Under the pieces are notes generated by a model. That model did not search any database. It was not told where the DNA came from and saw only the letters and a program-made list of their open reading frames with translations. Both the position numbers and the translations under genes were made by a program. A DNA stretch of 64,000 nt from an uncultured Acidobacteriota bacterium (GTDB lineage Bacteria; Actinomycetota; Acidimicrobiia; Spongiisociales; ZC4RG35): contig CAWKEI010000010.1 of assembly GCA_963848695.1 (NCBI GenBank), positions 4,905 through 68,904 on the forward strand, given 5' to 3'. This document shows, piece by piece, positions 3,012-59,702 of the stretch (positions are counted from its first letter, which is position 1; every line of letters starts with the position of its first letter).

Positions 3012-3779
3012 TTACGTGTCGGGACGAGCTATATCGAAGGTTTCGCGTGCGGGGGCCCCGGTCGGAGCCGGCGCTCTCCGCCCGCCCGACGCCACCCGAT
3101 AGCCCGCCCAGATCAATGTCACCGCGGCGAGCAGCGACAACGCGAAGGCACTCGACTCGCCGAGGGCGAGACCGGTGCCGCCCGACGCTGCCGCCAGCGT
3201 GCCGGCGAGGATGAGCAGGTTCCCCCAGACGATGCGGCGGTTCTTCTTCCAGAATCGGAAGATCGAGACCACCGACAACACGGCCAGGATCGTGGCGCCC
3301 AATGCCCCCCCGATGATGGCGAACAGCCTCGGCCCGAATCCCGAGGCGAACACGTCATGGGGCACCCCGGTCTCAGGCAGGGGATTGGCGAATGGCACGG
3401 TGGCGGTCAGGGTCGTGGAGATGGCGGTGAAGGCGCCGAGCGCGATGGCCATGACATGACCCGACCGCTTCCCGACGACCAGGAACATCGAGCCCAGGGC
3501 CAGGAACGGGATGTTGAGGATGGCGCCGAATAGATAGAAGATTCGGTACATGGGCCCGGTCCAGCCGACGGTGACTCCCAGGAAGAACGCCCAGGTCGCG
3601 ATCGCGAACATCACCATGCCCGTCCCGTATGCCGCGATGTGGGGACGGGGCCGTCTTCGGTAGTCGAGCCAGAGATCGACGGCGAAGATCGACGCTGCCA
3701 GCGCCGCGACAAGGGCCAGAGCCGCATCCACTCCCGCCAGGCTAGAACGAGGCGGAAGCCCCGGCCGACCGGCGATCAA
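3012..3779 (-). CDS. polytopic membrane protein of unknown function, start overlaps ABC ATPase stop (co-transcribed)
   Basis: 255-aa ORF with ~7 hydrophobic segments. A 4-nt overlap with the upstream ATPase gene suggests translational coupling. Confidence 0.5.
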   Translation of the reverse strand: MIAGRPGLPPRSSLAGVDAALALVAALAASIFAVDLWLDYRRRPRPHIAAYGTGMVMFAIATWAFFLGVTVGWTGPMYRIFYLFGAILNIPFLALGSMFLVVGKRSGHVMAIALGAFTAISTTLTATVPFANPLPETGVPHDVFASGFGPRLFAIIGGALGATILAVLSVVSIFRFWKKNRRIVWGNLLILAGTLAAASGGTGLALGESSAFALSLLAAVTLIWAGYRVASGGRRAPAPTGAPARETFDIARPDT

Positions 3780-4798
3780 GACCGCGAGAAGATGCGGGCG
3801 TCGGTGGCGCGGACCCGGGCCGGCTGACCCACCCGGTAGAGGGGACGTGGGCCGATCCTGGCCCGGACCCGGGTGCCCTCGTGGAGGGCGAGCGTCACCA
3901 ACTGGTCATGACCGAAGAACTCGGACCCGGCCACCACTGCATTCGGCGTCTCGCCGAGAGAGATCTGGACGTTCTCCGGTCTGACAATCACGGACACGGT
4001 CCCATGGAGATCGGTCTCGAAGGCGCCAACCGGGGTGTCGACTCTTCCATTGCGCGCTACTGACTCCAGGACATCGGCATCACCCAGGAACTCAGCCACC
4101 CATTGGTCGGCCGGATTCGAGTAGAGATGGCCGGGGGTGTCGGCCTGCAACACGCGCCCTTCCCTCATCACGGCGACGATGTCGGATGTTGCCAGCGCCT
4201 CCTCCTGGTCGTGAGTGACGAACACTGCCGTGGTGCGTGCCTCGGTGAGGATGGTTCGCAGCTCACGGCGCACTCGGTCACGCAAACTGGCGTCGAGGTT
4301 GGAGAACGGCTCGTCGAGGAGGATCACCTCCGGCTTGGGGGCGAGGGCCCGGGCCAGGGCGACGCGCTGTTGTTGCCCGCCGGATAGCTCGTTCGGCATC
4401 CGGCCCTCCAATCCAGTCAATCCGACCAGTTCCAGAACCTCGGCCACACGTGGCCCTCGGTCGCCTCGGGGCAGCCCATAGGCGATGTTCCCGGCGACGG
4501 TCATGTGGGGGAAGAGGGCGTAGTCCTGGAACACCATTCCCACCCGACGCCGGTCCGGGGGGATGAACTCTCCCGGCCCGAGCACGGTCCTGCCATGGAT
4601 CTCGACCGATCCTCCGGCGGTCTCGAAGCCGGCGATGACCCGTAACGCGGTGGTCTTGCCACACCCCGAAGGCCCGAGGATGGTGACAACACCACCCTCC
4701 CAGACGTCCAGGCTGAAATGGTCCAGGGCCACGGCGTCGCCAAAGGACCTGGTCAGGTCCCGGGCGCGGATGGCGAGCCGGTCAGTCGCTGAGCTCAC
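3776..4798 (-). CDS. ABC transporter ATP-binding protein, FbpC/PotA-like with C-terminal TOBE-like domain (iron(III)-type importer)
   Basis: Walker A GPSGCGKTT, signature LSGGQQQRVALARAL, Walker B ILLDEPFSNLD. 340 aa with a C-terminal extension. Confidence 0.85.
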   Translation of the reverse strand: MSSATDRLAIRARDLTRSFGDAVALDHFSLDVWEGGVVTILGPSGCGKTTALRVIAGFETAGGSVEIHGRTVLGPGEFIPPDRRRVGMVFQDYALFPHMTVAGNIAYGLPRGDRGPRVAEVLELVGLTGLEGRMPNELSGGQQQRVALARALAPKPEVILLDEPFSNLDASLRDRVRRELRTILTEARTTAVFVTHDQEEALATSDIVAVMREGRVLQADTPGHLYSNPADQWVAEFLGDADVLESVARNGRVDTPVGAFETDLHGTVSVIVRPENVQISLGETPNAVVAGSEFFGHDQLVTLALHEGTRVRARIGPRPLYRVGQPARVRATDARIFSRS

Positions 4799-6357: not shown

Positions 6358-7362
6358 TCACACCAGGCCCGCCTCGGCCACGAGGCGGGTGGCGAGATCG
6401 AGAACGCCTGCCAGCTCGCCGAGATCGATATCAGGGGAAGCGATCTCGGACAAGGGCGGCACTCCCTCGGGTTGGGGCGTCCCCTCGACCAAGGGATATT
6501 CGAACGTCTCGGTTGCGAAGTAGGCCTGGGCGTCCTCAGCCAGCAGGAAATCGACGAATTCCTGCGCGATATCGGGGTCTTGGGTCGCGGACATCATCCC
6601 GACTCCCGCCGTCATCACCAGTGAGCCGACATCCCCTGCCGGGATGAAGTAGTTCTCGGTGTTCTCGCCCTGGCCTTCTGCTCGGAGACGCAGCAAGTAG
6701 TAGTGATTCACCAGACCTCCGGACAGCTCGCCGGTGTCGGTCGCGTCGACGATCGGAGCGTTTCCGTCGAACTCGACCGGGTCGTTGGCGGCCAGCGCCT
6801 CCAACCATTGACGGGTCCCGTCTTCGCCCCGTTCGAGGATCATCGCCGAGATGAAGGCAAGGAACGAGCCATTGGTCGGAGCCACGCCCAGTTGGCCCGC
6901 CCAAACCGGATCGACCGTGTCATCGATGGTCTGGGGGAGCGGGATGTCCGAGTCGATGTTGTGCGCCACGACCCGGACCCGCCCGGAGGTCCCGATCCAT
7001 TTTCCCTGACCATCCTGGAAACGAGGCTCGACCAGGCCGAGAGTCTGTGAGGGCAATTCCGACATGAGCTCGGCGGCCGCGCCCAGCGAGGCGGGGTCTT
7101 GGGCGAAGAAGATGTCGGCCTCGGTTGTCTCGCCTTCGGCGAGAAGGGTGGCGGCGAGCTCTCCGGAGTCGGCGTATCGGACTTCGACTTCGACACCCGA
7201 AGACGATTCGAAGTCTTCGATCAGCGGAGCCACCAGCTCCTCACTGCGCCCGGAGTAGATGACCAGAGAGTCTTGGGAGCCCCCCTCGCCTGAGCCTCCA
7301 CAGGCCGCCATGAGTGCCGCGGCGACGAGCGCACCGACGATCAACCTCTTCAAGGCCGCCAT
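6358..7362 (-). CDS. ABC transporter substrate-binding lipoprotein, iron(III)/FbpA-AfuA family
   Basis: Signal peptide plus lipobox (LMAAC GGS). VIYSGRSEELV motif typical of ferric-binding proteins. 334 aa. Confidence 0.72.
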   Translation of the reverse strand: MAALKRLIVGALVAAALMAACGGSGEGGSQDSLVIYSGRSEELVAPLIEDFESSSGVEVEVRYADSGELAATLLAEGETTEADIFFAQDPASLGAAAELMSELPSQTLGLVEPRFQDGQGKWIGTSGRVRVVAHNIDSDIPLPQTIDDTVDPVWAGQLGVAPTNGSFLAFISAMILERGEDGTRQWLEALAANDPVEFDGNAPIVDATDTGELSGGLVNHYYLLRLRAEGQGENTENYFIPAGDVGSLVMTAGVGMMSATQDPDIAQEFVDFLLAEDAQAYFATETFEYPLVEGTPQPEGVPPLSEIASPDIDLGELAGVLDLATRLVAEAGLV

Positions 7363-11033: not shown

Positions 11034-12116
11034 TCAACCAACGAGGAGCGGGATCTCGACCTCGTCCTGGGCGAGGCCACCGTGGTAGGCCCGAAGCCGC
11101 TTGTCGAACCCAGGGGGAAGGAGCACCTTGCCTGGCGGGGCAAGGAGGAGGGCGTCGCCTGACCTGGCGCGCGCCTCAAGGCCGGGTTCGGCGCCGAATT
11201 GGGTGAGAGGGTCGGTCAGCTCCACCCCGACATGTCGGGCGAGGGCATCGAGCAAATCGGGCTCTCCCCAGACATGAACCCCCCTCGGATCTCCCGCATA
11301 GCGGAGAGAATGGAACGGCTCCTGGCGGATGAGGACCTTGTCATCCTCGTTGTAGTCGATCAGCCCGTGGTCGGCTGTTCCCAGCACGGTGACGTCGGGC
11401 GGCATCCTCGAGACGATCTCCTCCCAGAGGTTGGCGGCGAGACGGACCGCCTCGGCAAACTCCGCAGAGGCGAGCCCATGGACATGGCCGGCGAAGTCGA
11501 CCGGCCAGAAGTACGTGAAGATGAGCCGGTTCGGCTCCGCAGCGAGCTGCACCGTGGCCTCCGCGAGATCGTGTTCGTCCCAGGTGCGTTCGAAGCGAGC
11601 GCCGCGGTAGAGCAAGCGGGAGAGAGGGCTGCCGGCGAAAGGCCCCGGCTGAACCGTGATCGGCTCGATGCCGGCCTGGCGAAGCCGTTCCCAGAGATTG
11701 GGTCGGGCCAGGAACGACCCGTAGTCATGATGGACCGGCTGGCCGGACAGATCCACCCATTTCAAGGTGTTCACCACGCGTCCCGCCTCCTCCAACCAGC
11801 AGAGATGGGAGATGAGACCGTGCTGCCCGGGCGCGAGCCCGGTGGCCACGGTGGCCAGAGCGACACTCGTCGTGGTTGGAAAGGGCGCTCGCAACGTCTC
11901 TCGATGCGATTCGCGCAAGGATCGGGCTGCCTCGTGGGCCAGTTGTGCAGTGCCGAGACCGTCGAACAGGATGAGGACATATGACCGCCCGTCAGGGATC
12001 GACCTGGCGATCGAGGGGTCGAGCGGAAGTGATGGCGAGTTGCCGATCAGCCTTGTCTCGAGCTCCGCGACGAGGTTGACCAGACCTGCGGAGTCTGGAG
12101 AGGGGGCGTCCGCCAT
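11034..12116 (-). CDS. alkaline-phosphatase superfamily protein (type I phosphodiesterase / nucleotide pyrophosphatase-like)
   Basis: Metal-site-like motifs LILFDGLG, FPTTTSVALATVATG (Thr nucleophile region) and VLGTADHGL. Confidence 0.55.
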   Translation of the reverse strand: MADAPSPDSAGLVNLVAELETRLIGNSPSLPLDPSIARSIPDGRSYVLILFDGLGTAQLAHEAARSLRESHRETLRAPFPTTTSVALATVATGLAPGQHGLISHLCWLEEAGRVVNTLKWVDLSGQPVHHDYGSFLARPNLWERLRQAGIEPITVQPGPFAGSPLSRLLYRGARFERTWDEHDLAEATVQLAAEPNRLIFTYFWPVDFAGHVHGLASAEFAEAVRLAANLWEEIVSRMPPDVTVLGTADHGLIDYNEDDKVLIRQEPFHSLRYAGDPRGVHVWGEPDLLDALARHVGVELTDPLTQFGAEPGLEARARSGDALLLAPPGKVLLPPGFDKRLRAYHGGLAQDEVEIPLLVG

Positions 12117-16953: not shown

Positions 16954-17258
16954 TGTTGCTCAACCAGTTCCTGATCCTGGCGGCGGCGATGTTCTCCCTC
17001 GGCATCTATGGCCTGCTCGTCCGGCGCAACATCGTGTTGATCCTGCTCTCGGTGGAACTGATGCTGGCCGCGGTAAACATCAACTTGATCGCCTTCGAGT
17101 CGGTCCTCAGATCCCCCGATGCCATCGGCCAGGTCTTCACGGTGTTCGTCATCACAGTGGCCGCCGCCGAGGTCGGGATCGGGCTGGCCATCGTCCTGAT
17201 GATCTTCCGCAATAGGAAGTCTGCAAACGTCGACGAGCTCAATCTGATGAGATGGTGA
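16953..17258 (+). CDS. nuoK: NADH-quinone oxidoreductase subunit K
   Basis: 101 aa, [26 protein letters not shown]...ELMLAAVNINLIAF. Confidence 0.9.
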   Translation: MLLNQFLILAAAMFSLGIYGLLVRRNIVLILLSVELMLAAVNINLIAFESVLRSPDAIGQVFTVFVITVAAAEVGIGLAIVLMIFRNRKSANVDELNLMRW

Positions 17259-17270
17259 AAGTGGCTGTGT

Positions 17271-17372
17271 TTGATTGCCGGCCGACTTCGCCCTTCGGCA
17301 ACCCTCATGTCGCGAGGTGGGCCTCCTATCGCGTCATCACACCTCAGGGCGAACAGACGCCGGTCGGCCGGG
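17271..17372. repeat. ~100-nt hairpin-forming intergenic repeat, copy A, inserted between nuoK and nuoL
   Basis: The 24-nt 5' block TTGATTGCCGGCCGACTTCGCCCT and the 3' block GGGCGAACAGACGCCGGTCGGCCGG are shared with 55883..55986. The blocks can pair (CCGGCCGAC/GTCGGCCGG, TTCGCCC/GGGCGAA) around a ~52-nt variable loop. Confidence 0.5.
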
Positions 17373-17397
17373 GCTTCCGCCTCGCTGGAGATCGACC

Positions 17398-19425
17398 GTG
17401 AGCTGGATCATCGCGACTGAGGCGGAGCACGCGGTCGAGGCCGGTGTGACCGGTGGGTTCTGGGTGGACACCGCCGGGATCATGCTGCTCCTCCCCCTCG
17501 TCGCCTTCCTGCTCATCCTCGCTGTCGGGAAGAGGATGAAGTACCACGGAGCCGAGATCGCCATCGCGGCGCTCGCCATCAACAGCCTCTGGGCCACCGT
17601 CCTGTTCGTCATGAACATGACCGACGGCGTCCTCGCCCAGGAAACCTTCGAGATCGCCTCGATCGGGAGCAATCTCGTCTTCGAGCTGGGATGGGTGGTC
17701 GACGGTCTGTCGATCATGATGTACTTCTTGGTCAACGTGGTCGGCCTGATCGTGTTCATCTACGCGGTCGGCTACATGAAGGGCGACATCAGGGTCGATT
17801 GGTTCTTTGCCGCTTTCTCCCTTTTTGCCGGCTCGATGCTCATCCTGGTGGGCGCCCCCAACCTGATCCAGCTGATCATCGGGTGGGAGGGGGTCGGTCT
17901 CGCTTCCTACTTCCTGATCGGCTTCTACTGGGAGGACATGGCCAACGTGAACGCGGGCAACAAGGCGTTCATGGTCAACAAAGTGGCCGACGTCGGGCTG
18001 ATCCTGGGGGCGATCATCCTCGGGCTCGCCATCGGCACGTTTGACTTCTTCGACATGAGCACGGCTGCCTTCGAGCACTCCGAGCCCCTTGGCGCAGTTG
18101 CCGTCGTCGGTGGAGCCCTGCTCTTCTTTGGAGCGATGGGCAAGAGTGCCCAATTCCCCCTTCACATCTGGCTCCCCGACGCGATGGCCGGCCCGACCCC
18201 GGTCTCGGCGCTGATGCACGCGGCCACCATGGTCACTGCCGGGATCTATCTGATGGGTCGGGTGTTCCCCCTCTTCGAGTACCTCGCCTTCGACATCAGG
18301 CCCTGGATGGTGGCGATCGGGGCCATCACGCTCTTCGGCGTCGGTCTCCTCGCCCTGGTGGCCGACGACATCAAGAAGGTGCTCGCCTATTCCACCGTCT
18401 CCCAGCTCGGGTACATGATGACCGCGGTGGCAGCGGGCGGCTACACGGCCGGCCTCTTCCACCTCTTCACCCACGCCTTCTTCAAGGCACTTCTCTTCCT
18501 TGGGGCCGGGGCGGTGATCCACGCCGTCCATTCCAACAACATGAGCGACATGGGAGGTCTGCGCAAGGCGATGCCCCGCACCTACTGGACCTTTGTCGTC
18601 GGCTCCCTCTCTCTAGCTGGGATCATCCCCCTGGCCGGGTTCTGGTCCAAGGACGAGATCCTGGTTGCCCTGGGTCACGAGGGTTACGTCGCCGTGATGT
18701 GGATCGCCATCGCCGGCGCCTTCGTCACGGCTTTCTACATGACCCGAGCGGTGGCCCTCACCTTCCACGGGGAGTACAAGGGCCAGGGCCACCCCCACGA
18801 GGCACCCGCCATCATGACCGTGCCTTTGGTCTTCTTGGCCATACCGTCGATCCTCTTCGGGTTTTTCAATGTCCCCGGCTGGGAGATCCCCGGCATCGGG
18901 AACTTCAGCCAATGGCTGGCGGTGCGGGTAGTCCCGATGGGCGACGAGCACGCCGAGGCGATCGATCTGGTTCTGGCCGGGAGCGGGTTGTTCGCCGCGC
19001 TCCTCGGCATCGCTCTGGGGTGGATGGTCTGGGGCAAGGACCGGGCGACTCAGGCGGAGCGGGACCGCTTCGAGGTCCCGGCGCTCTATCCGCTGCTGCG
19101 CAACAAGTACTACGTCGACGACCTCGCCGATGGGATCACCGCCGGGACGATGGGCCCGGTGGCCCGGTTCATCAACTGGGTCAACGACTACGTGATCGAC
19201 TGGATCGTCAACGGTGTGGCCTTCCTCACCAAGGGTCTGGGCTCTTTCGTCTACGGCGTGGTCGATCAGCGCGGGGTCGACGGTGTGATCCATGGTCTTG
19301 GCGCCGGGGCGGACGGCGCCGGATCGGCCCTACGGCGATTGCAGACGGGCCGGATTCAGCAGTACGCGGCGTCGTTCGTCGGGGGCGCCCTGGTCTTGAT
19401 CGTCCTGTTCGTGTTCGTGATATAG
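17398..19425 (+). CDS. nuoL: NADH-quinone oxidoreductase subunit L (antiporter-like)
   Basis: 676 aa from GTG (VSWIIATEAE). The upstream part of track ORF 17275.. is translation of the repeat element. Typical NuoL TM architecture with C-terminal long helix region. Confidence 0.9.
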   Translation: MSWIIATEAEHAVEAGVTGGFWVDTAGIMLLLPLVAFLLILAVGKRMKYHGAEIAIAALAINSLWATVLFVMNMTDGVLAQETFEIASIGSNLVFELGWVVDGLSIMMYFLVNVVGLIVFIYAVGYMKGDIRVDWFFAAFSLFAGSMLILVGAPNLIQLIIGWEGVGLASYFLIGFYWEDMANVNAGNKAFMVNKVADVGLILGAIILGLAIGTFDFFDMSTAAFEHSEPLGAVAVVGGALLFFGAMGKSAQFPLHIWLPDAMAGPTPVSALMHAATMVTAGIYLMGRVFPLFEYLAFDIRPWMVAIGAITLFGVGLLALVADDIKKVLAYSTVSQLGYMMTAVAAGGYTAGLFHLFTHAFFKALLFLGAGAVIHAVHSNNMSDMGGLRKAMPRTYWTFVVGSLSLAGIIPLAGFWSKDEILVALGHEGYVAVMWIAIAGAFVTAFYMTRAVALTFHGEYKGQGHPHEAPAIMTVPLVFLAIPSILFGFFNVPGWEIPGIGNFSQWLAVRVVPMGDEHAEAIDLVLAGSGLFAALLGIALGWMVWGKDRATQAERDRFEVPALYPLLRNKYYVDDLADGITAGTMGPVARFINWVNDYVIDWIVNGVAFLTKGLGSFVYGVVDQRGVDGVIHGLGAGADGAGSALRRLQTGRIQQYAASFVGGALVLIVLFVFVI

Positions 19426-29918: not shown

Positions 29919-31076
29919 GTGGAGATCGACATCGGGATCGGGAAATCGGGTCGTCAGGGGTACGGCTTCGATGACATAGCCATCGTCCCCTCGAGACGGA
30001 CCCGGGATCCCGACGACGTCGACATCTCCTGGCAGCTCGACGCCTTCAAGTTCAGCCTCCCCATGATGGGCTCGGCCATGGACTCGGCCATCAGCCCCTC
30101 GACTGCGATCCAGATCGGGCGGCTGGGAGGTCTGGCGGTACTCAACCTCGAGGGTCTGTGGACCCGATACGAAGACCCTGACCCGTATTTCGAGGAAATA
30201 GCGGAGCTACCCGCGGAAAAGGCCACGCTCCGGATGCAGGAGATCTATCTCGAGCCGGTGAACCCCGATTTGATCGGGCAGAGGGTGGCGGAGATCAAGG
30301 CAGCCGGCGTGGTGACCGCAGCCAGCCTGACTCCGCAGAGGGTGCGGGGCTGGGCATCTCACGCCTTGAGCGCCGGTCTCGATGTGCTGGTGATCCAGGG
30401 GACGGTGGTCTCTGCCGAGCACGTCTCGAGCAGGGAGGAGCCCCTCGATCTCAAGCAGTACATTGCAAGCAGCGACGTGCCGGTCATCGTCGGCGGTTGT
30501 GCCAGCTATTCGACTGCGCTTCATCTCATGCGCACTGGCGCGATCGGCATCCTGGTCGGAGTCGGCCCGGGGGCGGCCTGCACGACTCGGGGCGTGCTCG
30601 GCGTAGGGGTACCGCAGGCCACGGCGATAGCCGACGCTGCGGGCGCAAGGATCCGCTATCTCGACGAAACAGGCCGGTATGTCCATGTGATCGCCGACGG
30701 CGGGATGCGCACAGGTGGGGATGTCGCCAAGGCCATCGCCTGCGGGGCGGACGCCGTCATGATCGGGTCCCCGCTGGCATCGGCCACTGAAGCTCCGGGC
30801 CGGGGGTACCACTGGGGGATGGCCACCTTCCATCCGACCTTGCCTCGCGGGGCCCGGGTGGAGGTTGGCGACAGGGGCACCCTGGAGCAGATCCTGGTTG
30901 GCCCGGCCCATGAGAACGACGGCAAGCTGAATCTGTTCGGCGCCTTGCAGGTCTCGATGGCCACCACCGGCTTCTCCGATGTCAAGGAGTTCCAGAAGGC
31001 CGAGGTGATGATCGCTCCGTCCCTCCAGACCGAGGGCAAGAGCCTGCAGCGATCGCAACGGGTGGGAATGGGATGA
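29919..31076 (+). CDS. IMP dehydrogenase family protein without CBS pair (GuaB3-like)
   Basis: N-terminus GYGFDDIAIVPSRRTRDPDDVDISWQLDAFKFSLPMM closely resembles mycobacterial GuaB3; GVGPGAACTTR loop. Start taken at the GTG (VEIDIGIG). Confidence 0.7.
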   Translation: MEIDIGIGKSGRQGYGFDDIAIVPSRRTRDPDDVDISWQLDAFKFSLPMMGSAMDSAISPSTAIQIGRLGGLAVLNLEGLWTRYEDPDPYFEEIAELPAEKATLRMQEIYLEPVNPDLIGQRVAEIKAAGVVTAASLTPQRVRGWASHALSAGLDVLVIQGTVVSAEHVSSREEPLDLKQYIASSDVPVIVGGCASYSTALHLMRTGAIGILVGVGPGAACTTRGVLGVGVPQATAIADAAGARIRYLDETGRYVHVIADGGMRTGGDVAKAIACGADAVMIGSPLASATEAPGRGYHWGMATFHPTLPRGARVEVGDRGTLEQILVGPAHENDGKLNLFGALQVSMATTGFSDVKEFQKAEVMIAPSLQTEGKSLQRSQRVGMG

Positions 31077-31198
31077 AGCGTGCTGGAAGTGTCCGGAATC
31101 GTGAGACGAGGCGGTAGCCCCGGCCGACCGGCGTCTGTTTGCCCGACGTCAACAGCTTGGATCGGGTCGGCCCTTCCGTGGTCCCCGGCTCCGAGGAC

Positions 31199-32764
31199 AT
31201 GAGTCCCGACGGAGACACACGGGCAAAGTCGGCCGGCAGTGAAACAGTTCTGGTGCTCGACTTTGGCGCCCAATACGCCCAGCTGATCGCGCGACGGGTG
31301 CGAGAGAGTCATGTTCGGTCTGAGATCGTCTCCCGGGAGATCAGCCGTGAAGAGATCAGGAGTCGCAACCCGATCGGTCTCATCCTCTCCGGCGGGCCGG
31401 CATCGGTGTATGCAGCGGATGCCTATCGGATGGATCCCGCCATCCTCGAAATGGGGATTCCGGTGCTCGGGATTTGTTACGGCCACCAACTTCTGGCCGA
31501 TCTCGCCGGGGGAACGGTGGCCAACACCGGTAGCGCCGAATACGGGAACACCTCTTTGGAGATGACCGGGGATTCGGTGCTGCTGAAAGACCTTCCCAAG
31601 CAGCAGCAGGTCTGGATGTCGCATCAAGACCAGGTGACCGAGCCCCCGGAAGGATTTGTCGCGGTCGCCACCTCCGATGGTGCCCGGGTGGCGGCGATGG
31701 AGGATCGCGATCGAGGGCTGTATGGGGTCCAGTTCCACCCCGAGGTCGCCCACACCCCCAGGGGCGCCGAGATCCTGAGACGCTTCCTCTATGACGTGTG
31801 CGGCGCCGCCCCGTCGTGGACCTCCCATTCGATCATCGAATCACAGGTCGAGTCGATCAGAGCCCAGGTCGGGGATGGGAAGGTGATCTGTGGCCTGTCC
31901 GGGGGAGTCGACTCTGCGGTGGCCGCCGCCCTCGTCCACGAGGCGATCGGTGACCAGCTCACCTGCATATTCGTCGATCACGGCCTGCTGCGGTCTGGGG
32001 AGGCGGAGCAGGTTGAGGAGACCTTCCGCTCCCATTTCGAGGTCGATTTCGTCCACGTCAAGGCGGCCGATCGGTTTCTCGAGCTCCTCGCTGGTGTCAT
32101 CGATCCCGAGCAGAAGCGCCGGATCATCGGCGAGACGTTCATCCGAGTCTTCGAGGAGGCGGTTGGGCCTCTAGGTGACGCCCGCTTCCTGGTCCAGGGA
32201 ACGCTGTACCCCGACGTGATCGAGTCGGGGTCGGCCAGCGCGGCGACGATCAAGACTCATCACAACGTCGGCGGCCTGCCCGACGACATGAAGTTCGAGC
32301 TGGTCGAGCCGCTGCGCGATCTGTTCAAGGACGAGGTGAGGGCGATTGGGGAAGAGCTGGGGCTGCCTGAGGAGATCGTGTGGCGCCAGCCTTTCCCCGG
32401 GCCGGGGCTTGCGGTGCGGGTGATCGGCGAGGTGACCCGGGAGCGACTGGAGCTGCTCCGAGCCGCCGACCTGATCGTGACCGAGGAGATCAAACGGGCT
32501 GGTCTCTACCGTGAGATCTGGCAGGCATTCGCCGTTCTCCCCTCGGTCCGGACGGTTGGAGTCCAAGGGGATCTCCGCACCTACGCGTATCCACTGGTGG
32601 TTCGGGCCGTCACCTCCGAGGATGCCATGACGGCGGATTGGGCCCGATTGCCCTACGAAGTCCTGGAGCGGATCTCCAGCAGGGTGATCAACGAGGTCCC
32701 CGGGATAAACCGGGTCGCCTACGACATCTCGAGCAAACCACCCGCCACCATCGAGTGGGAATAG
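31199..32764 (+). CDS. guaA: GMP synthase (glutamine-hydrolysing)
   Basis: GATase ICYGHQLL Cys motif, PP-loop [11 protein letters not shown]-terminal dimerisation domain ending ...IEWE. Confidence 0.9.
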
Positions 32765-32885
32765 GAGAGTTCTCCCCGCATCAACCGGGGGTTGCCGAAG
32801 GGCGAAGTGGGCCGGCAACAACAGAGGCGAGCTTTCAGTACGTATGTTGAGTTGCCGATAAGACCTGACAAGTCCAGGGAGCCAG

Positions 32886-44418: not shown

Positions 44419-45642
44419 TTGAAGATCCATGAGCACCAGGCCAAGCAGATCATGGCCGAACGGGGGATAGCCGTTCCTCTCGGCCGGATGGCCACGACGG
44501 TGGAGGATGCCGTCGCTGCAGTTCGGCCGCTTATCGAGGAGTCGGGCAAGCCGGTGGTAGTGCTCAAGTCGCAAATCCACGCCGGCGGGCGGGGCAAGGG
44601 CACCTTCAAGGAGTACCCGGACCTGCGCGGGGTCAATGTGATCACCGAGGGCATCGAAGGCGGACCCGCCGCTGCAGAGGAAAGGGTCCGCGAGCTCGCC
44701 GGCAAGATGCTCGGCTCGACCCTCGTCACCGTGCAGACCGGGCCCGAGGGCAAGGTGGTGAACCGTGTCTATCTCGAGCAGGGGATCGACATCGCCCGAG
44801 AGCTCTATCTAGCCGTCCTGCTCGACCGCTCGGCGAGCCGGAACATCGTCATGGCCTCCACCGAAGGGGGGATGGAGATCGAGAAGGTCGCTGCGGAGAC
44901 TCCGGAGAAGATCTTGCGACAGGAGATCGACCCCGTAATCGACCTGGCGGACTTCCAGGCCAATGAGCTGGCTCACGGCCTCGGCATCGAGGGCGATACC
45001 ACTGGCGACTTCATCAGGTTCGTCAAAGCCCTCGACCGGGCTGCTACCGAGCTCGACACCGATCTGATCGAGATAAACCCTCTGGTCATCACCGGCTCGG
45101 GGCAGGTAATGGCCCTCGACGGGAAGATGGCCTTCGACGACAACGCCCTGTTCCGCCATCCGGATATCGCAGCGATGCGCGACGAAACCGAGGAGGACCC
45201 GGCCGAGGTGGAAGCCAAGGAGGCAGGGCTCAGCTACATCAAACTCGACGGGACGATCGGATGCCTGGTCAACGGGGCGGGGCTGGCCATGGCCACCATG
45301 GACACGATCAAACACGTTGGCGGCGAGCCGGCCAACTTTCTCGACGTCGGGGGCGGCGCCGACGAGCAACAGGTGACCACCGCCTTCCAGATCATCACCA
45401 AAGACCCGGCGGTGAGGGGCATATTCGTGAACATCTTCGGTGGGATCATGCGCTGCGATGTCATTGCCGCCGGGATCGTGGCCGCGGTCAAGAGCGTTGG
45501 GCTGGCGGTGCCGCTGGTGGTCCGACTGGAGGGAACCAACGTCGAAGAGGGCAAGAGCATCCTGCGGGACTCGGGGCTCGACCTGGTGGCGGCGGACAGT
45601 CTGAAGGACGGTGCTGAGAAGATCGTGGAGCTGGTCCGATGA
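44419..45642 (+). CDS. sucC: succinate--CoA ligase (ADP-forming) beta subunit
   Basis: From TTG: (M)[22 protein letters not shown]-grasp N-terminus; C-terminal [14 protein letters not shown] motif. Confidence 0.9.
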
Positions 45643-48952: not shown

Positions 48953-50815
48953 TTGCGCAAGCTCGCCCGGGCTCTGATCGTCTTCCTGCTGGTCGCGGCC
49001 CCGGCGACGGCGGTCTTCGCCAAGTCGTTCTGGATGAGCAACGCCGATGTCGACATCGTCGTGAACGACGACGGATCGCTGTCGGTCACAGAGAGATTGA
49101 CGTTCGACTTCGATGGGGATTTCGCCGGCGCTTATCGAGACATCCCCCTCCGACCGGGCGAGACCATCTCAGGCGTCACCGTCAGTGACGAGTCGGTCAC
49201 CTACGAGCCGGGGGCATGTACCGAGCTCGGCTGCTCGTCGCCTCCGGGCTCGTTTGGAGTGGAGGAGCAGAGCGATCTGGTCCGGATCGTGTGGCATCAC
49301 AGCTCGTTCAGCGAGCAGCGGACCTTCGAGATCAGCTACGTGATGACTGGTCTCACCATTGCCCACGACGACGTCGTCGACGTGAATGTCCAGGTGTGGG
49401 GCGACCAGTGGGCGGTTGGCCTCCAGGAGCTCGCCGCCAGGATGACCCTGCCCGCTGGGGCGGAGCCCGGCGAGGTCCGTGTCTACGGCCATCCCTACGG
49501 AGTCGACGGGGAGACCTCGCTCGGGGCCGACCAGATAACCCCGTCTCTGGTGGCGAGCAACGTGCCCGCCTATCAATGGGTCGAATTGCGCGCGGTATTC
49601 CCCAGGTCTGTGCTCACATCGACCGAGGGCGCAACAGTCGTCCCCGGAGAAGGTCTGCCCGGCATCATCGCCGAGGAAGACGAATTCGCCCGGGAGGCGT
49701 CCGACGCCACCACCGCGGCCCGGTCGGGGCTGATCTGGGGCTCGGTCCTGGCCCTGGGGCTGTCCGCGGGCCTCGGGGGCCTCGTGTACCTCCGGTACGG
49801 AAAGGAGCCGCGGGTCGACTACGACCGGGAGTACGAACAGGAACCGCCGACCGAGTTGAAACCGGCGGAAGTCGGGGCCCTCCTCACCCAGGGGGCGGTG
49901 AGCGAGAAGGAGTTCACCGCCACCATGTTCGATCTGATCCGGCAGGGCGCGATCAAGGCCACCCCGTCGCAGGTCGAGCGGAGCACCTGGGGCGGGCTTC
50001 GCGAAGAGACGATCACCGACCTGGTGCTCGAGCTCACCGACAAGGACACCGGCTACCGGGACTACGAGCAGTCGGTGCTTTCGGTCGTCGGCCGCGTCCT
50101 CGACGAAGGGCCAAGACCGCTTCATGAGTTCAAGGAGCGAATCCGTGACGATGCTTCGGAGAACGCATCGAGCTACCAGAGCTTCAGGAGCAAGGTGTCC
50201 TCGGCGATCAAGCGAGGCGGTCTGCTCGACGAGACCGGCAACGGCGTGGCGTGGTTCGTGGCCATCGCGGTCGGGCTCCTCGTCTTCGGTGCGATCGTGT
50301 TCCTGCCCGACCTGCTCAGACGCCGTCCCGGCGGCCAGACCATGGCCATCTTCATCGTGATCGGGATGGTGATCGGCGCCCTCGCTCTCTACATACTCCT
50401 GTTCTTCCGCCGGGTGCGGGTCCGACGGACCAAGGAGGGGGCACTCGAGGCCGAACGCTGGGACGCGTTCAGGCGCTATCTGACCGATTTCTCCCGGCTC
50501 GAGGAAGCCCCACCGATCTCACTCGCGCTCTGGGACAAATTCCTGATCTACGCCATCGTGTTCGGGGTGGCGGAGGAGGTGTTGCAACAGGCGCGGATCC
50601 ACGCCCCACCCGAGTTGGAACAGACCTCGTCGATCTATTGGTTCGGGAACTACGGATATTCGGGAGGCCACACCGAGAATGCCTTTGCCGGTCTGAACTC
50701 TGCTCTCACAGGTGCTTTCAGCCCGCCTTCGTCGAGCGGTGGTGGCGGCGGGTTCTCCGGCGGAGGGGGAGGCGGTGGCGGTGGAGGAGGCGGCGGGGGT
50801 GGAGGCGCCTGGTAG
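48953..50815 (+). CDS. DUF2207 domain membrane protein with C-terminal poly-glycine tail (LemA partner)
   Basis: Signal peptide, large extracytoplasmic domain, 3 TM helices near residues 420-480. Ends in SSGGGGGFSGGGGGGGGGGGGGGGGAW. Adjacent to LemA with a 1-nt gap. Confidence 0.65.
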   Translation: MRKLARALIVFLLVAAPATAVFAKSFWMSNADVDIVVNDDGSLSVTERLTFDFDGDFAGAYRDIPLRPGETISGVTVSDESVTYEPGACTELGCSSPPGSFGVEEQSDLVRIVWHHSSFSEQRTFEISYVMTGLTIAHDDVVDVNVQVWGDQWAVGLQELAARMTLPAGAEPGEVRVYGHPYGVDGETSLGADQITPSLVASNVPAYQWVELRAVFPRSVLTSTEGATVVPGEGLPGIIAEEDEFAREASDATTAARSGLIWGSVLALGLSAGLGGLVYLRYGKEPRVDYDREYEQEPPTELKPAEVGALLTQGAVSEKEFTATMFDLIRQGAIKATPSQVERSTWGGLREETITDLVLELTDKDTGYRDYEQSVLSVVGRVLDEGPRPLHEFKERIRDDASENASSYQSFRSKVSSAIKRGGLLDETGNGVAWFVAIAVGLLVFGAIVFLPDLLRRRPGGQTMAIFIVIGMVIGALALYILLFFRRVRVRRTKEGALEAERWDAFRRYLTDFSRLEEAPPISLALWDKFLIYAIVFGVAEEVLQQARIHAPPELEQTSSIYWFGNYGYSGGHTENAFAGLNSALTGAFSPPSSSGGGGGFSGGGGGGGGGGGGGGGGAW

Positions 50816-55430: not shown

Positions 55431-55490
55431 GCTGGCACGGTAACGGGTTGATTCCCGGCAATGTGGGCGGGCCGATACCGTGCCTGGCAC

Positions 55491-55886
55491 ATGATGACCG
55501 ACCTGACCCCACTTCTCTCCGAGCCCGACGCCTCGATCGCAGTGATCGGCGCAACCGATCATGCCGGGAAGTACGGCGGGATCATCTATCGGGATCTAAA
55601 GCGGAGGGGGTATCGGGTCTTCGCTGTCAACCCCTACCGCGAGGCCGTCGACGGCGATCAGTGCTGGAAGACCGTGCTCGACCTTCCCGAGACTCCGACC
55701 ATCGCCGATTTCGTCATCCCGGCCCGGCGGGGACTCGATGTGCTCGACGAATGCCAGCAGGCCGGGATCCTCAACATCTGGCTCCAGCCCGGAGCAGAGT
55801 CACCTGAGCTGATGGAGAAGCTGGACACCGGGCCGTTCAATTGGCTGGCCCACGCCTGCATCATGGTGAGAGCTGCGCTGTCTTGA
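55491..55886 (+). CDS. CoA-binding domain protein (YccU-like)
   Basis: SIAVIGATDHAGKYGGIIYRDLKRRGYRVFAVNP Rossmann-type CoA-binding motif. Confidence 0.65.
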   Translation: MMTDLTPLLSEPDASIAVIGATDHAGKYGGIIYRDLKRRGYRVFAVNPYREAVDGDQCWKTVLDLPETPTIADFVIPARRGLDVLDECQQAGILNIWLQPGAESPELMEKLDTGPFNWLAHACIMVRAALS

Positions 55887-56021
55887 TTGCCGGCCGACTT
55901 CGCCCTGGAGCGCCACCCCGGCCGCATGACCAACTCTGTTTAGCCGGACGGGCACGGTCTTGGGCGAACAGACGCCCGGTCGGCTGAGGGTGCCGCACGA
56001 AGGCAAGGCGTTGGCAATCAA
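55883..56021. repeat. ~140-nt hairpin-forming intergenic repeat, copy B, with 9-bp terminal inverted repeats TTGATTGCC / GGCAATCAA (MITE-like)
   Basis: Shares the 24-nt 5' block and the GGGCGAACAGACGCC(C)GGTCGGC 3' block with copy A at 17271..17372. Lies between convergent genes and its ends overlap both stop codons. Confidence 0.5.
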
Positions 56022-57157
56022 AGTCGCCCGTCGAACAGCTCCCGGGCGATGATGTTGCGCTGGATCTCGGAAGTGCCCTCGTAGATGCGGGGCGCGCGGA
56101 CCTCGAGGTAGAGATGGGCCAGGGTGGAGTCGGCCTCGAGCCCTCTCGCCCCCATCACCTGGATCGCGGTGTCGACCGCTCGTTGCGCGGTCTCGGTGGC
56201 GTGGAGCTTGGCCATCGCCGCCTTCCCGGTCAGGGACTCGGTATCGCCGCTGTCGTGAGCAGCGGCGGCGGAGTACACGAGCAACTCGGCTGCCTCGATG
56301 TCGAGTCGGACGTTGGCCAACTGGTGGGAGACCCCCTGGAAATCGGAGATCGGCGTCCCGAATGCGGTGCGGGTTACCGCATGGCCGGCGGCGATGCGAA
56401 GCGCCGATTCCGCCATGCCCAGGGCGAAAGCGCCGACGCTGGGCCGGAAGAGATCCAGGGTTTGCATGGCAACCCGGAAGCCGTGGTCGACCTCGCCGAG
56501 GACGTTGGCAGAAGGCACAAACACACCATCGAGGTGGAGTCGGCCCAGTGGGTGCGGGGAGAGCATCGGGATCGGCTCCCCGCTCAGCCCTTCCATCTCG
56601 CTGCTCACGACGAACGCGGTGATTCCTCGGGAGCCGGCCCCGTCGGTGGTGCGGGCGAAAAGGGTGTAGACGTCGGCGTCGGGAGCATTGGAGATGTAGG
56701 CCTTCTCTCCGCTGATCCGAAATCCTTCACCATCGGGCTCGGCGATGGTGGAGAGGGCGGCGGCATCGGAGCCGGCACCGGGCTCGGTCAGGGCGAAGGC
56801 CGCAACCGTCTCCCCGTTCCGGATACCCGGCATGATCCGGTCTCTCAATTGGTCGTTTTCGGAGAGATGAATCGGTATCGCTCCGAGACCCTGCACGGCG
56901 AAGGCGGTCTCGGCCTCTGTGGACACCCGGGCCAGCCCTTGTCGAACGGAGCACAGCTCGGTGGCCGTGATGGTCTGCTCGGCGAAGAGGCGCTCGAAGA
57001 GCCCATGGTGGGCCAGGGCACCGACCAGTTTCCGGTTGACTCGCCCGGGGACACCGCCGTCGGCGATCTCGATCAGGGCATGCCCGAGACGCTCGGATTC
57101 CTCGACCAGCGGCCTGCTCATGACCCCAGTATGAGCCGTGCCATCGGCGGGTGCCAT
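56018..57157 (-). CDS. acyl-CoA dehydrogenase
   Basis: 379 aa with ACAD N-terminal, middle and C-terminal domains (catalytic-region motifs YTLFARTTDG and GGSNYEIQRN-like). Confidence 0.88.
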   Translation of the reverse strand: MAPADGTAHTGVMSRPLVEESERLGHALIEIADGGVPGRVNRKLVGALAHHGLFERLFAEQTITATELCSVRQGLARVSTEAETAFAVQGLGAIPIHLSENDQLRDRIMPGIRNGETVAAFALTEPGAGSDAAALSTIAEPDGEGFRISGEKAYISNAPDADVYTLFARTTDGAGSRGITAFVVSSEMEGLSGEPIPMLSPHPLGRLHLDGVFVPSANVLGEVDHGFRVAMQTLDLFRPSVGAFALGMAESALRIAAGHAVTRTAFGTPISDFQGVSHQLANVRLDIEAAELLVYSAAAAHDSGDTESLTGKAAMAKLHATETAQRAVDTAIQVMGARGLEADSTLAHLYLEVRAPRIYEGTSEIQRNIIARELFDGRL

Positions 57158-59266: not shown

Positions 59267-59658
59267 GCCGGCATCGTCTCGTGAATCCAGGCGACCTGGC
59301 GCCGGCCCTTGGCTTCTCCCATGGCGCCGTTCCGGCCGATGGTCGGACCATCTACGTCGCCGGCCAAACCGGTCACTATCAAGACATGACCATCGACGAT
59401 GGGATCGTCGAACAGTTCGCCCGGGCCTGTCGTGCGGTGGCCACCGTGATCGAAGAGGCGGGAGGGGCGCCGGACGATTTGGTATCGATGACGATCTACA
59501 CGACCGATGTCACCGGATACCAGGGGGCTCTGGGGCCGATCGGGGAGGCTTATCGGGAGGTGTTCGGCAAGCACTTCCCGCCGATGGCCCTGATTGGGGT
59601 CGCCGAGCTCTTCGACCCCAAGGCGAAGGTGGAGCTGGTCTGTGTCGCGGTGGTTTGA
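59263..59658 (+). CDS. RidA/YjgF family reactive-intermediate deaminase
   Basis: ~131 aa, YVAGQTG...DMTIY..D RidA pattern. 4-nt overlap with the crotonase gene. Confidence 0.8.
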   Translation: MSRHRLVNPGDLAPALGFSHGAVPADGRTIYVAGQTGHYQDMTIDDGIVEQFARACRAVATVIEEAGGAPDDLVSMTIYTTDVTGYQGALGPIGEAYREVFGKHFPPMALIGVAELFDPKAKVELVCVAVV

Positions 59659-59702
59659 AAACGGGGTGCCGCTCGGCCGGGGCTGCCGCTCCGAGGCAAG
59701 AC

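Follow-up and report, generated by a model that had tools for sequence, protein, structure and literature searches.

A probable REPIN/ERIC/MITE-like family of hairpin-forming intergenic repeats at gene ends and operon junctions of Acidimicrobiia

The element situated between a CoA-binding-domain gene and a convergent acyl-CoA dehydrogenase (ACAD) gene at positions 55879–56006 (+ strand) of the window, by which we mean the whole 64-kb stretch of DNA that was analysed, is probably a member of a large, non-autonomous, hairpin-forming family of intergenic repeats of Acidimicrobiia (Actinomycetota) that resembles REPIN, ERIC and MITE elements, a reading to which we give a probability of roughly 0.6. 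The unit of this family is 120–145 bp long, is able to form a hairpin and, in genomes of Acidimicrobiia, occupies the ends of genes and the junctions of operons. At such gene 3′ ends and operon junctions the elements are gained and lost at the DNA level, with amplification in tandem and decay to solo halves. The kind of repeat is already known, and the family itself is apparently undescribed: a literature search by sequence and by taxon returned no description of intergenic repeats from Acidimicrobiia.

A preliminary description of the window had recognized two copies of this repeat, referred to here as A and B, and had proposed that they represent a dispersed family rather than a local duplication. 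Both copies are real. They have in common a 24-nt block, TTGATTGCCGGCCGACTTCGCCCT, which lies exactly at 17271–17294 in A and at 55883–55906 in B (both + strand; no match in 100 shuffles), and a 3′ block, GGGCGAACAGACGCC, at 17347–17361 and 55962–55976, and their interiors differ, as had been stated, to the extent that they cannot be aligned. The resemblance is not that of a chance pair: when 75 other copies are used to build a covariance model, the scores are 111.7 bits for A, 79.2 bits for C and 73.5 bits for B (E = 7.5e-20 for B). The proposal of a dispersed family is borne out by six copies or remnants within the window, at least ~130 copies elsewhere and a conserved, covarying structure. 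Missing from the preliminary description were the full copy C, the half-copy D and the reduced forms E and F, which emerged from repeat finding, pattern searches and the covariance model, and with which the 64 kb contain three full (A, B, C) and three partial (D, E, F) copies.

Copy A, a full short-type element (17267–17390, + strand), is inserted in the sense orientation between the nuoK stop codon (17256–17258) and the nuoL start codon (GTG at 17398), and copy C, a full long-type element (31101–31247, − strand), lies antisense between an IMPDH-family gene that ends at 31076 and guaA. Just past the guaA stop, and likewise antisense, is copy D (~32789–32826, − strand), a 5′ half in which the leader and the 5′ strands of stems P1 and P2 are followed by the first part of the interior, and of which 30 nt are 97% complementary to positions 17275–17304 of copy A. 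Copy E (3742–3783, − strand; covariance-model match of 24.3 bits, E = 2.8e-5) is collapsed to a leader, the outer part of P1 and a tail, without an interior; an ABC-transporter ATPase gene has its stop codon in the TGA of this leader (3778–3776). Copy F (59655–59699, + strand; covariance-model E = 0.0065) is a solo tail form (TTTGAAAACGGGGTGCCGCTCGGCCGGGGCTGCCGCTCCGAGGCAAG) placed between the stop of a RidA-family gene (59656–59658) and that of a convergent gene (59703). Two further sequences that resemble the 5′ block, at 11489–11505 and at 45326, were rejected as chance matches, both being inside coding sequence. Open reading frames run into or through the elements of the window: an ORF of 46 codons spans copy A, beginning 3 nt past the nuoK stop and overlapping the nuoL start with a terminal GTGA, a 716-aa “nuoL” ORF begins at 17275, and another ORF occupies 3012–3779.

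Read from 5′ to 3′ on the + strand, copy B consists of a leader (CTTGATTG, 55881–55889) that follows the family logo, the 5′ strand of an outer stem, P1 (CCGGCCGACT, 55890–55899), the 5′ strand of an inner stem, P2 (TCGCCCT, 55900–55906), a variable interior that is unrelated in sequence to that of copy A (55907–55961), the 3′ strand of P2 (GGGCGAA, 55962–55968; assigned from the 3′-block match and the P2 pair counts), a conserved asymmetric bulge (CAGACGCC(C), 55969–55977; assigned from the logo and the covariance model), the 3′ strand of P1 (GGTCGGCTGA, consensus GGTCGGCCGG, 55978–55987; assigned from the sequence and the covariance model) and a tail (GGGTGCCGCACGAAGGCAAGG, 55988–56008) that is a variant of the family tail GGRGCTNCCGCYNC(..GGCAAG). 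This full short-type element is slightly degenerate, in that its bulge contains one extra C, before GGTCGGC, and the 3′ arm of its P1 contains two mismatches.

In the family as a whole, position logos anchored on the 5′ and 3′ blocks indicate that conservation spans approximately −12 to +30, with conserved positions extending ~8–12 nt beyond the 5′ arm and ~13 nt beyond the 3′ arm. A T-rich leader, TTTGATT (GCYnnTTTKATT in its fuller logo form), precedes a 5′ arm of the form GCCGGCCGACTT then YGSCC, and the 3′ arm takes the form GGSCRAA-CAGACGCC-GGTCGGCCGG. Together the arms build the near-invariant, 10-bp outer stem P1 (CCGGCCGACU/GGUCGGCCGG), which is separated from P2 by a conserved bulge of 8–9 nt, (A)CAGACGCC, on the 3′ arm; they are followed by the tail GGRGCTNCCGCY, whose logo form is RGCTNCCGCYNC. 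Two size classes are apparent when the distance is measured from the 5′ block to CAGACG, one of 77–80 nt (70+ copies), in which the interior usually carries ..CAACCCTCA.., and one of 98–104 nt (~45 copies), in which it carries ..GGCTCC-hairpin-GGGGAYYAC... The palindromes of the arms are limited to GCCGGC and CCGG..CCGG micro-palindromes; GTAG is absent, and the sole CGTC is located on the bulge complement. A candidate closing helix, P0 (TTGCC/GGCAA), is confined to one tail subfamily (..CCAAGGCAAG).

Both termini of the repeat at the copy B locus had been described as overlapping stop codons, and this is correct. The upstream CoA-binding-domain gene (ORF 55461–55886) ends with a TGA at 55884–55886, inside the leader of B, and the convergent ACAD gene (ORF 56018–57157, − strand) ends at 56018–56020, where the + strand reads TCA. 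The terminal inverted repeat that had suggested a MITE exists as a sequence, since GGCAATCAA at 56013–56021 is the exact reverse complement of 55883–55891, and TTGATTGCC occurs three times in the 64 kb, compared with an expectation of 0.31. As a MITE end, however, it does not stand: GGCAATCAA is an inverted copy of the family leader alone (CTTTGATTGCC on the − strand), and the real inverted repeats of the family are the internal arms P1 and P2. This solo 5′ leader (TTGATTGCC on the − strand, 56013–56021), the TGA of which (56020–56018) is the ACAD stop, is what is left of a second copy, in inverted orientation, and has been kept because it now provides that stop codon. This arrangement, in which a full element is accompanied by an inverted solo 5′ block that provides the stop codon of the convergent gene, was seen at three additional loci (L135, L128 and L200), and the site occupied by copy B is also filled in L129 and L227. 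Copy B folds more stably than A or C solely through the extra inverted leader.

Two pattern scans recovered at least ~130 further copies from Acidimicrobiia metagenome-assembled genomes (MAGs) and from soil and sediment metagenomes. Because the query of the genome scan, a 17-mer, was too short and was degenerate at two positions, ~111 of the 120 loci listed were chance matches from unrelated phyla; among these 120 matches, complete elements are present at nine loci, which belong to seven MAGs, and are absent from the other 111. The seven MAGs are labelled Acidimicrobiia, Acidimicrobiaceae or Actinomycetota, apart from one that is labelled Acidobacteriota. A 20-mer from the 3′ block matched at least 120 metagenome loci, and at least 151 3′ blocks were retrieved, of which 136 are preceded by a 5′ block. 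Viral contigs gave no match to this 20-mer, and plasmid and phage collections gave no blastn match to the element. Many of the element-bearing loci are syntenic with the window at 72–86% nucleotide identity, which places the window in a related, Acidimicrobiia-like organism. Among the loci, tandem arrays with junctions at variable points, solo halves and units devoid of a 5′ arm are common. That the 3′ arm does not vary in the metagenome set results in part from the search itself, for which the 3′ block was the query pattern; nevertheless, conservation persists in the 5′ arm, which lay outside the metagenome query, and in the 3′ arm, which lay outside the genome query. The bulge, although likewise covered by the metagenome query, is identical as well in the nine genome loci that were retrieved via the 5′ block alone.

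The secondary structure, which was obtained with RNAalifold and explicit pair counting, is distinguished by a P1 stem that is paired in 98.7% of cells with almost no sequence change and by a P2 stem of 7–11 bp in which both sides change at 10 of 11 pairs (e.g. C-G 46 vs U-A 26, G-C 49 vs A-U 18 and C-G 37 vs G-C 22). Cells with double changes in P2 number 138, against 67 ± 6 in shuffles and 22–44 in controls with a slid partner column. The P1/P2 pattern recurs in the long type together with an additional helix, P3 (CUCC/GGGG), which contains a conserved U.G wobble (34/42) and at its base alternates between G-C and G-U; both U.G and G-U would mispair on the other strand. A hairpin considered for the tail, GGRGC-UNCC-GCYYC, was rejected, as it is without covariation and its R18/Y27 positions combine A with C in 20 copies vs A with T in 5. 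The strand test of P1/P2 found G.T and A.C mispairs in equal numbers (11 vs 11 in the first 7 bp of P2). Both are thus equally rare, and complementarity is therefore kept symmetrically on the two strands.

Gene orientations, which were assigned with a crude GC3-based gene finder, place 28 elements between co-directional genes in sense (++), 17 between co-directional genes in antisense (−−), 24 between convergent genes and 5 between divergent genes. There is a weak orientation bias toward sense, and promoter regions are strongly avoided, as they are by REP-type repeats. The upstream gene is in sense in 65 cases and in antisense in 31. A T(G/A)A of the leader is the stop codon of the upstream gene in 16 of the 65 sense-upstream cases, and in about as many more the stop is within the leader; in the window, the leader is used in this way at B, at E and, inverted, at the ACAD gene. 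In 10 of 43 sense cases the downstream start codon falls within a cluster at +44 to +50. A Shine-Dalgarno sequence in the tail was considered but did not emerge, SD-like 4-mers being present in 40% of the copies that precede a sense downstream gene vs 33% of those that precede an antisense one. The sense-strand frames are mildly stop-poor, all three being open in 29% of the elements vs 18% after shuffling of the interior.

A possible but unlikely explanation of these structural and contextual features is that the element is a functional structured RNA module that has been multiplied in the genome, with P1, the bulge and the tail as its active core, and that it acts in cis on processing, stability or translation coupling, or is possibly a self-cleaving ribozyme. 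The strong covariation of P2 and the invariance of the junction and bulge nucleotides speak for such a module, as do the P3 helix of the long type, with its conserved U.G wobble and its G-C/G-U base, the preponderance of sense copies relative to upstream genes (65 vs 31) and between co-directional ones (28 vs 17), the conservation of the arms above that of flanking coding DNA at shared sites, the open sense frames and the ORF across copy A, which is similar to those of MIRU elements. On the other hand, 17 of the 45 co-directional copies, including C and D in the window, are antisense, the counts of G.U and A.C in P1/P2 are symmetric, and the folding energy of the whole element is ordinary for its composition (z = −0.76 for A and −1.22 for C). 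Furthermore, the neighboring genes are functionally unrelated, the elements are polymorphic in their presence at orthologous sites, half-copies are common and the tail hairpin does not covary. Rfam 15 yielded no match at gathering thresholds across the whole window and, around A and C at E ≤ 10, only chance snoRNA/lncRNA matches (E 0.3–9). Against the reading as a DNA repeat, it may be observed that covariation, the bulge and the P3 U.G wobble also fit a functional RNA, and that the 100% conservation of the arms could reflect an RNA or protein function and not mobility.

The distribution of the elements at orthologous sites bears directly on their mobility. In an alignment of the nuo-operon junctions, presence/absence polymorphism is evident: nuoK|nuoL is filled in the window and in L213, L083, L082 (short type) and L158 (long type), and it is empty in L195, L051, L186 and L202, where stop and start are only a few nt apart. 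Conversely, nuoG|H, nuoI|J and nuoM|N are empty in the window and filled in other genomes, sometimes in antisense. Three short-type copies at nuoK|L share a subtype, consistent with their common descent, and the different subtypes found there in L082 and L158 suggest re-insertion or replacement. At shared sites the identity of the arms is 84–100%, that of the flanking genes 77–83% and that of the interiors 52–75%, in comparison with a random-pair baseline of 61 ± 5%.

Flanking target-site duplications, which the preliminary description had named as something to look for, do occur, although neither their lengths nor the ends of the inserts are fixed. The insert in L213 is flanked by a perfect 35-bp duplication that comprises the SD and the first eight nuoL codons, and other duplications measure 48 bp with 5 mismatches (L154), 22 bp (L147) and 13 bp (L126), so that clear examples are present at four independent loci among ~117 copies outside tandem arrays. 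The boundaries of the inserts vary from −7 to −10 on the 5′ side and from +32 to +51 on the 3′ side. Because the duplications are few and the ends imprecise, insertion may not be transposition at all. IS1549 of Mycobacterium smegmatis and IS1634 generate long target duplications of variable length (8–514 bp; PMC2266710), and by analogy the 13–48-bp duplications of the family would fit either transposition of the IS1549/IS1634 kind or template switching at hairpins. It is also conceivable, but quite doubtful, that the elements are functional RNA or single-stranded DNA machines and not passive selfish DNA, either as new self-cleaving or RNase-guided processing modules, with the invariant P1 stem, bulge and tail as their core and present in hundreds per genome, that cut or stabilize polycistronic mRNA where genes adjoin, or as the substrate of a new insertion mechanism that leaves long, variable duplications.

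We consider it very unlikely that the elements are classical MITEs, a kind to which the preliminary description had tentatively assigned them. Such a MITE would be an internally deleted insertion sequence (IS) whose terminal inverted repeats (TIRs) are recognized by a DDE transposase acting in trans. The elements are indeed small, dispersed and polymorphic, they possess inverted arms and at some loci they are flanked by target duplications, and IS1549 and IS1634 demonstrate that an actinobacterial transposase with such duplication behavior is known (8–514 bp; PMC2266710). Nevertheless, the arms are not terminal, since leader and tail lie outside them, the insert ends vary as described above, and the apparent TIR of B is the inverted leader remnant. 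The inner arms covary among copies of one genome, which is not the behavior of fixed transposase sites, and the interiors are unrelated between copies, unlike those of descendants of one parent IS. Tandem-array junctions fall at variable points, and target duplications have no fixed length (13, 22, 35 and 48 bp) and are not detectable at most copies. Neither the window nor ~0.87 Mb of element-bearing loci revealed a long element with the same ends or a pair of 5′ and 3′ blocks with an ORF between them, and there was no transposase between the oppositely oriented blocks of L126. The cognate transposase envisaged in the preliminary description likewise failed to appear, in that the 0.87 Mb of element-bearing fragments yielded neither a transposase nor a RAYT nor any other partner gene.

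The idea that the element is an intrinsic, and perhaps bidirectional, terminator of convergent genes is scarcely credible: B and F do lie between convergent genes, convergent arrangements exceed divergent ones in the family (24 vs 5) and the hairpin is long and G+C-rich, but neither strand of A or B showed a U-tract or a terminator-like site when scanned for terminators, C lies within the IMPDH-family/guaA pair, and A stands in sense within the complex I operon, at the nuoK|nuoL junction, while related genomes have copies at nuoG|H, I|J and M|N, where efficient termination would cause the loss of essential downstream subunits.

The reading of the family as REPIN/ERIC/MITE-like DNA repeats places it beside several known systems. 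REPINs (REP-BIMEs) of Proteobacteria are REP doublets that are mobilised by RAYT transposases. Like these, the family has two conserved inverted arms and a less conserved spacer that form a long imperfect hairpin of ~100–130 bp, a high copy number in both orientations with a preference for gene 3′ ends and convergent pairs, and singlet remnants, clusters, compensatory arm changes and persistence at orthologous sites (PMC3337134, PMC3116915, PMC3184786). The architecture of a REPIN is found in the P1/P2 arms and variable interior of the full elements, and singlets, the decay products of REPINs, have their counterpart in D, E and F and in numerous solo blocks of the other loci. A REP arm, however, is defined as an imperfect palindrome of 20–40 nt with GTAG or CGTC at one end (PMC3733652), whereas the arms of the family are not clear short palindromes, are without GTAG and have CGTC on the bulge complement, not at the end of a stem. 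In addition, no RAYT was seen in the 0.87 Mb of fragments, and some copies exhibit long target duplications, which are not produced by single-strand transposition of the IS200/RAYT type. In PMC3733652, REPs of the GTAG and CGTC kinds were not reported from Actinomycetota, the host phylum of the family.

ERIC elements (~127 bp) are similar to the family in being imperfect palindromes that occupy transcribed intergenic regions, including those of operons, in either orientation, and that affect mRNA at the RNA level (PMC3184786). They differ from it in that ERIC copies share their whole sequence, while copies of the family share only arms, bulge and tail, and the TIRs and TA duplications of the ERIC type were not seen in the family. 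ERIC, like the family, also comes in size variants, which result from internal insertions, as Wilson and Sharp reportedly described in 2006. MIRUs are intercistronic operon repeats of actinobacteria, 40–100 bp in length, that are co-transcribed, sometimes tandem and endowed with small ORFs that overlap the flanking stop and start codons (PMC3184786), a feature to which the ORF across copy A is similar, and the leader TGA of the family is often the stop of the upstream gene. In contrast to the family, which is often antisense (as in C and D; 17 of 45 co-directional copies), MIRUs are oriented with their operons; they also lack a long bulged hairpin and number ~40–50 copies per genome. Finally, MITEs that are moved by transposases of the IS1634/IS1549 family are small and non-autonomous, and that IS family generates duplications of 8–514 bp (PMC2266710), which may be compared with those of 13–48 bp at L126, L147, L213 and L154, but the family is without TIRs at its true ends, its ends are imprecise, its arms covary and no parent IS was found. 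The family thus works like REPIN/REP-BIME, ERIC, MIRU and MITE elements and yet lacks what defines each of them, because it has no GTAG- or CGTC-tagged palindrome, has neither terminal TIRs nor fixed duplications and is not always co-oriented with the operon.

We propose that copies of this REPIN/ERIC/MITE-like family may survive where they are harmless, i.e. where the leader can give a stop codon to a truncated upstream frame, where no terminator is introduced and where a downstream start codon is close. When transcribed in either direction, the 20-bp bulged hairpin would probably act as REP and ERIC hairpins do, on mRNA processing or on the stability of 3′ ends, an effect that is plausible by analogy with these elements. 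The near-invariant P1 stem and the bulge would most likely serve as the recognition site of a protein by which the elements are copied or maintained.

Acidimicrobiia, a class that has seen little cultivation, abound in soils, sediments, waters and sludge. In these organisms a family as dense as this one, with six copies or remnants in 64 kb, affects gene calling, through ORFs that enter or cross the elements, as well as operon annotation and the assembly of MAGs, the last because many contigs end inside a copy. The family is also usable as a lineage marker. By virtue of junctions that are shared at ~75–85% gene identity and that combine invariant arms, covarying stems and randomised interiors, it constitutes a natural dataset for weighing selection, gene conversion and re-insertion against one another, and the same dataset is suited to finding the enzyme behind the long and variable target duplications.

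Copy A of the hairpin-forming intergenic repeat (17267-17390, + strand) lies between nuoK and nuoL. A 46-codon ORF (GTG to TGA; 17261-17401) spans the whole of this copy; it begins 3 nt past the nuoK stop codon, and its own stop overlaps the nuoL start codon as GTGA. In the family as a whole, stop codons are somewhat scarce in the frames of the sense strand; all three frames were open in 29%, versus 18% when the interior was shuffled. In locus L129, from a related genome, the copy orthologous to copy B (the copy between the CoA-binding and ACAD genes) has its leader TGA out of the frame of the upstream gene, which continues into the element. A further orthologue of copy B, in L227, carries a duplicated leader (TTTGATTCCGG CTGTCTGATTCCGGCCGAC; L227:60-110).

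The gene junctions of the complex I operon and the flanks of the element also hold other repeats. A second repeat, unrelated to the main element (..GTTTCCTCCCCCAGGRGCGAAGCGAC..TTGGGGGAGGTGGC.CGGAGGGCCGGAG..), fills the nuoG|H junction in L051 (1150-1270) and, at L123 (~1090) and L126 (~2440-2500, - strand), directly adjoins copies of the main element; the 64-kb window lacks it. Short tandem repeats of the GCGTATT/GTTCACC type are a further kind of junction filler in the related genome of L083, where they occur at the nuoG|H junction and 3′ of the nuoK|L element (4010-4140 and 6800-6830). Within the window, a 36-nt direct repeat, AGATGAGCTACATCGGCGG(G/C)TAG.., found at 1731-1766 and 2590-2625 (83% identity, 859 nt apart), seems to reflect similarity between the 3′ ends of two adjacent genes, and a GGCGGn tandem repeat at 50758-50807 (periods of 6, 15 and 18 nt, ~3 copies) is probably a glycine-rich coding tract.

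A canonical copy of the main element (101.5 bits) is present in L094 (CAVRWT010000015.1), which comes from a MAG labelled 'uncultured Acidobacteriota'. The label or the binning of this MAG may be wrong; alternatively, the family could extend beyond the Actinomycetota.

The mechanically called ORFs of nuoL (17275-19425) and of a membrane protein (3012-3779) both run upstream through the repeat, acquiring N-terminal stretches derived from it. Wrong start calls by gene callers are likely for genes that lie beside copies of the main element.
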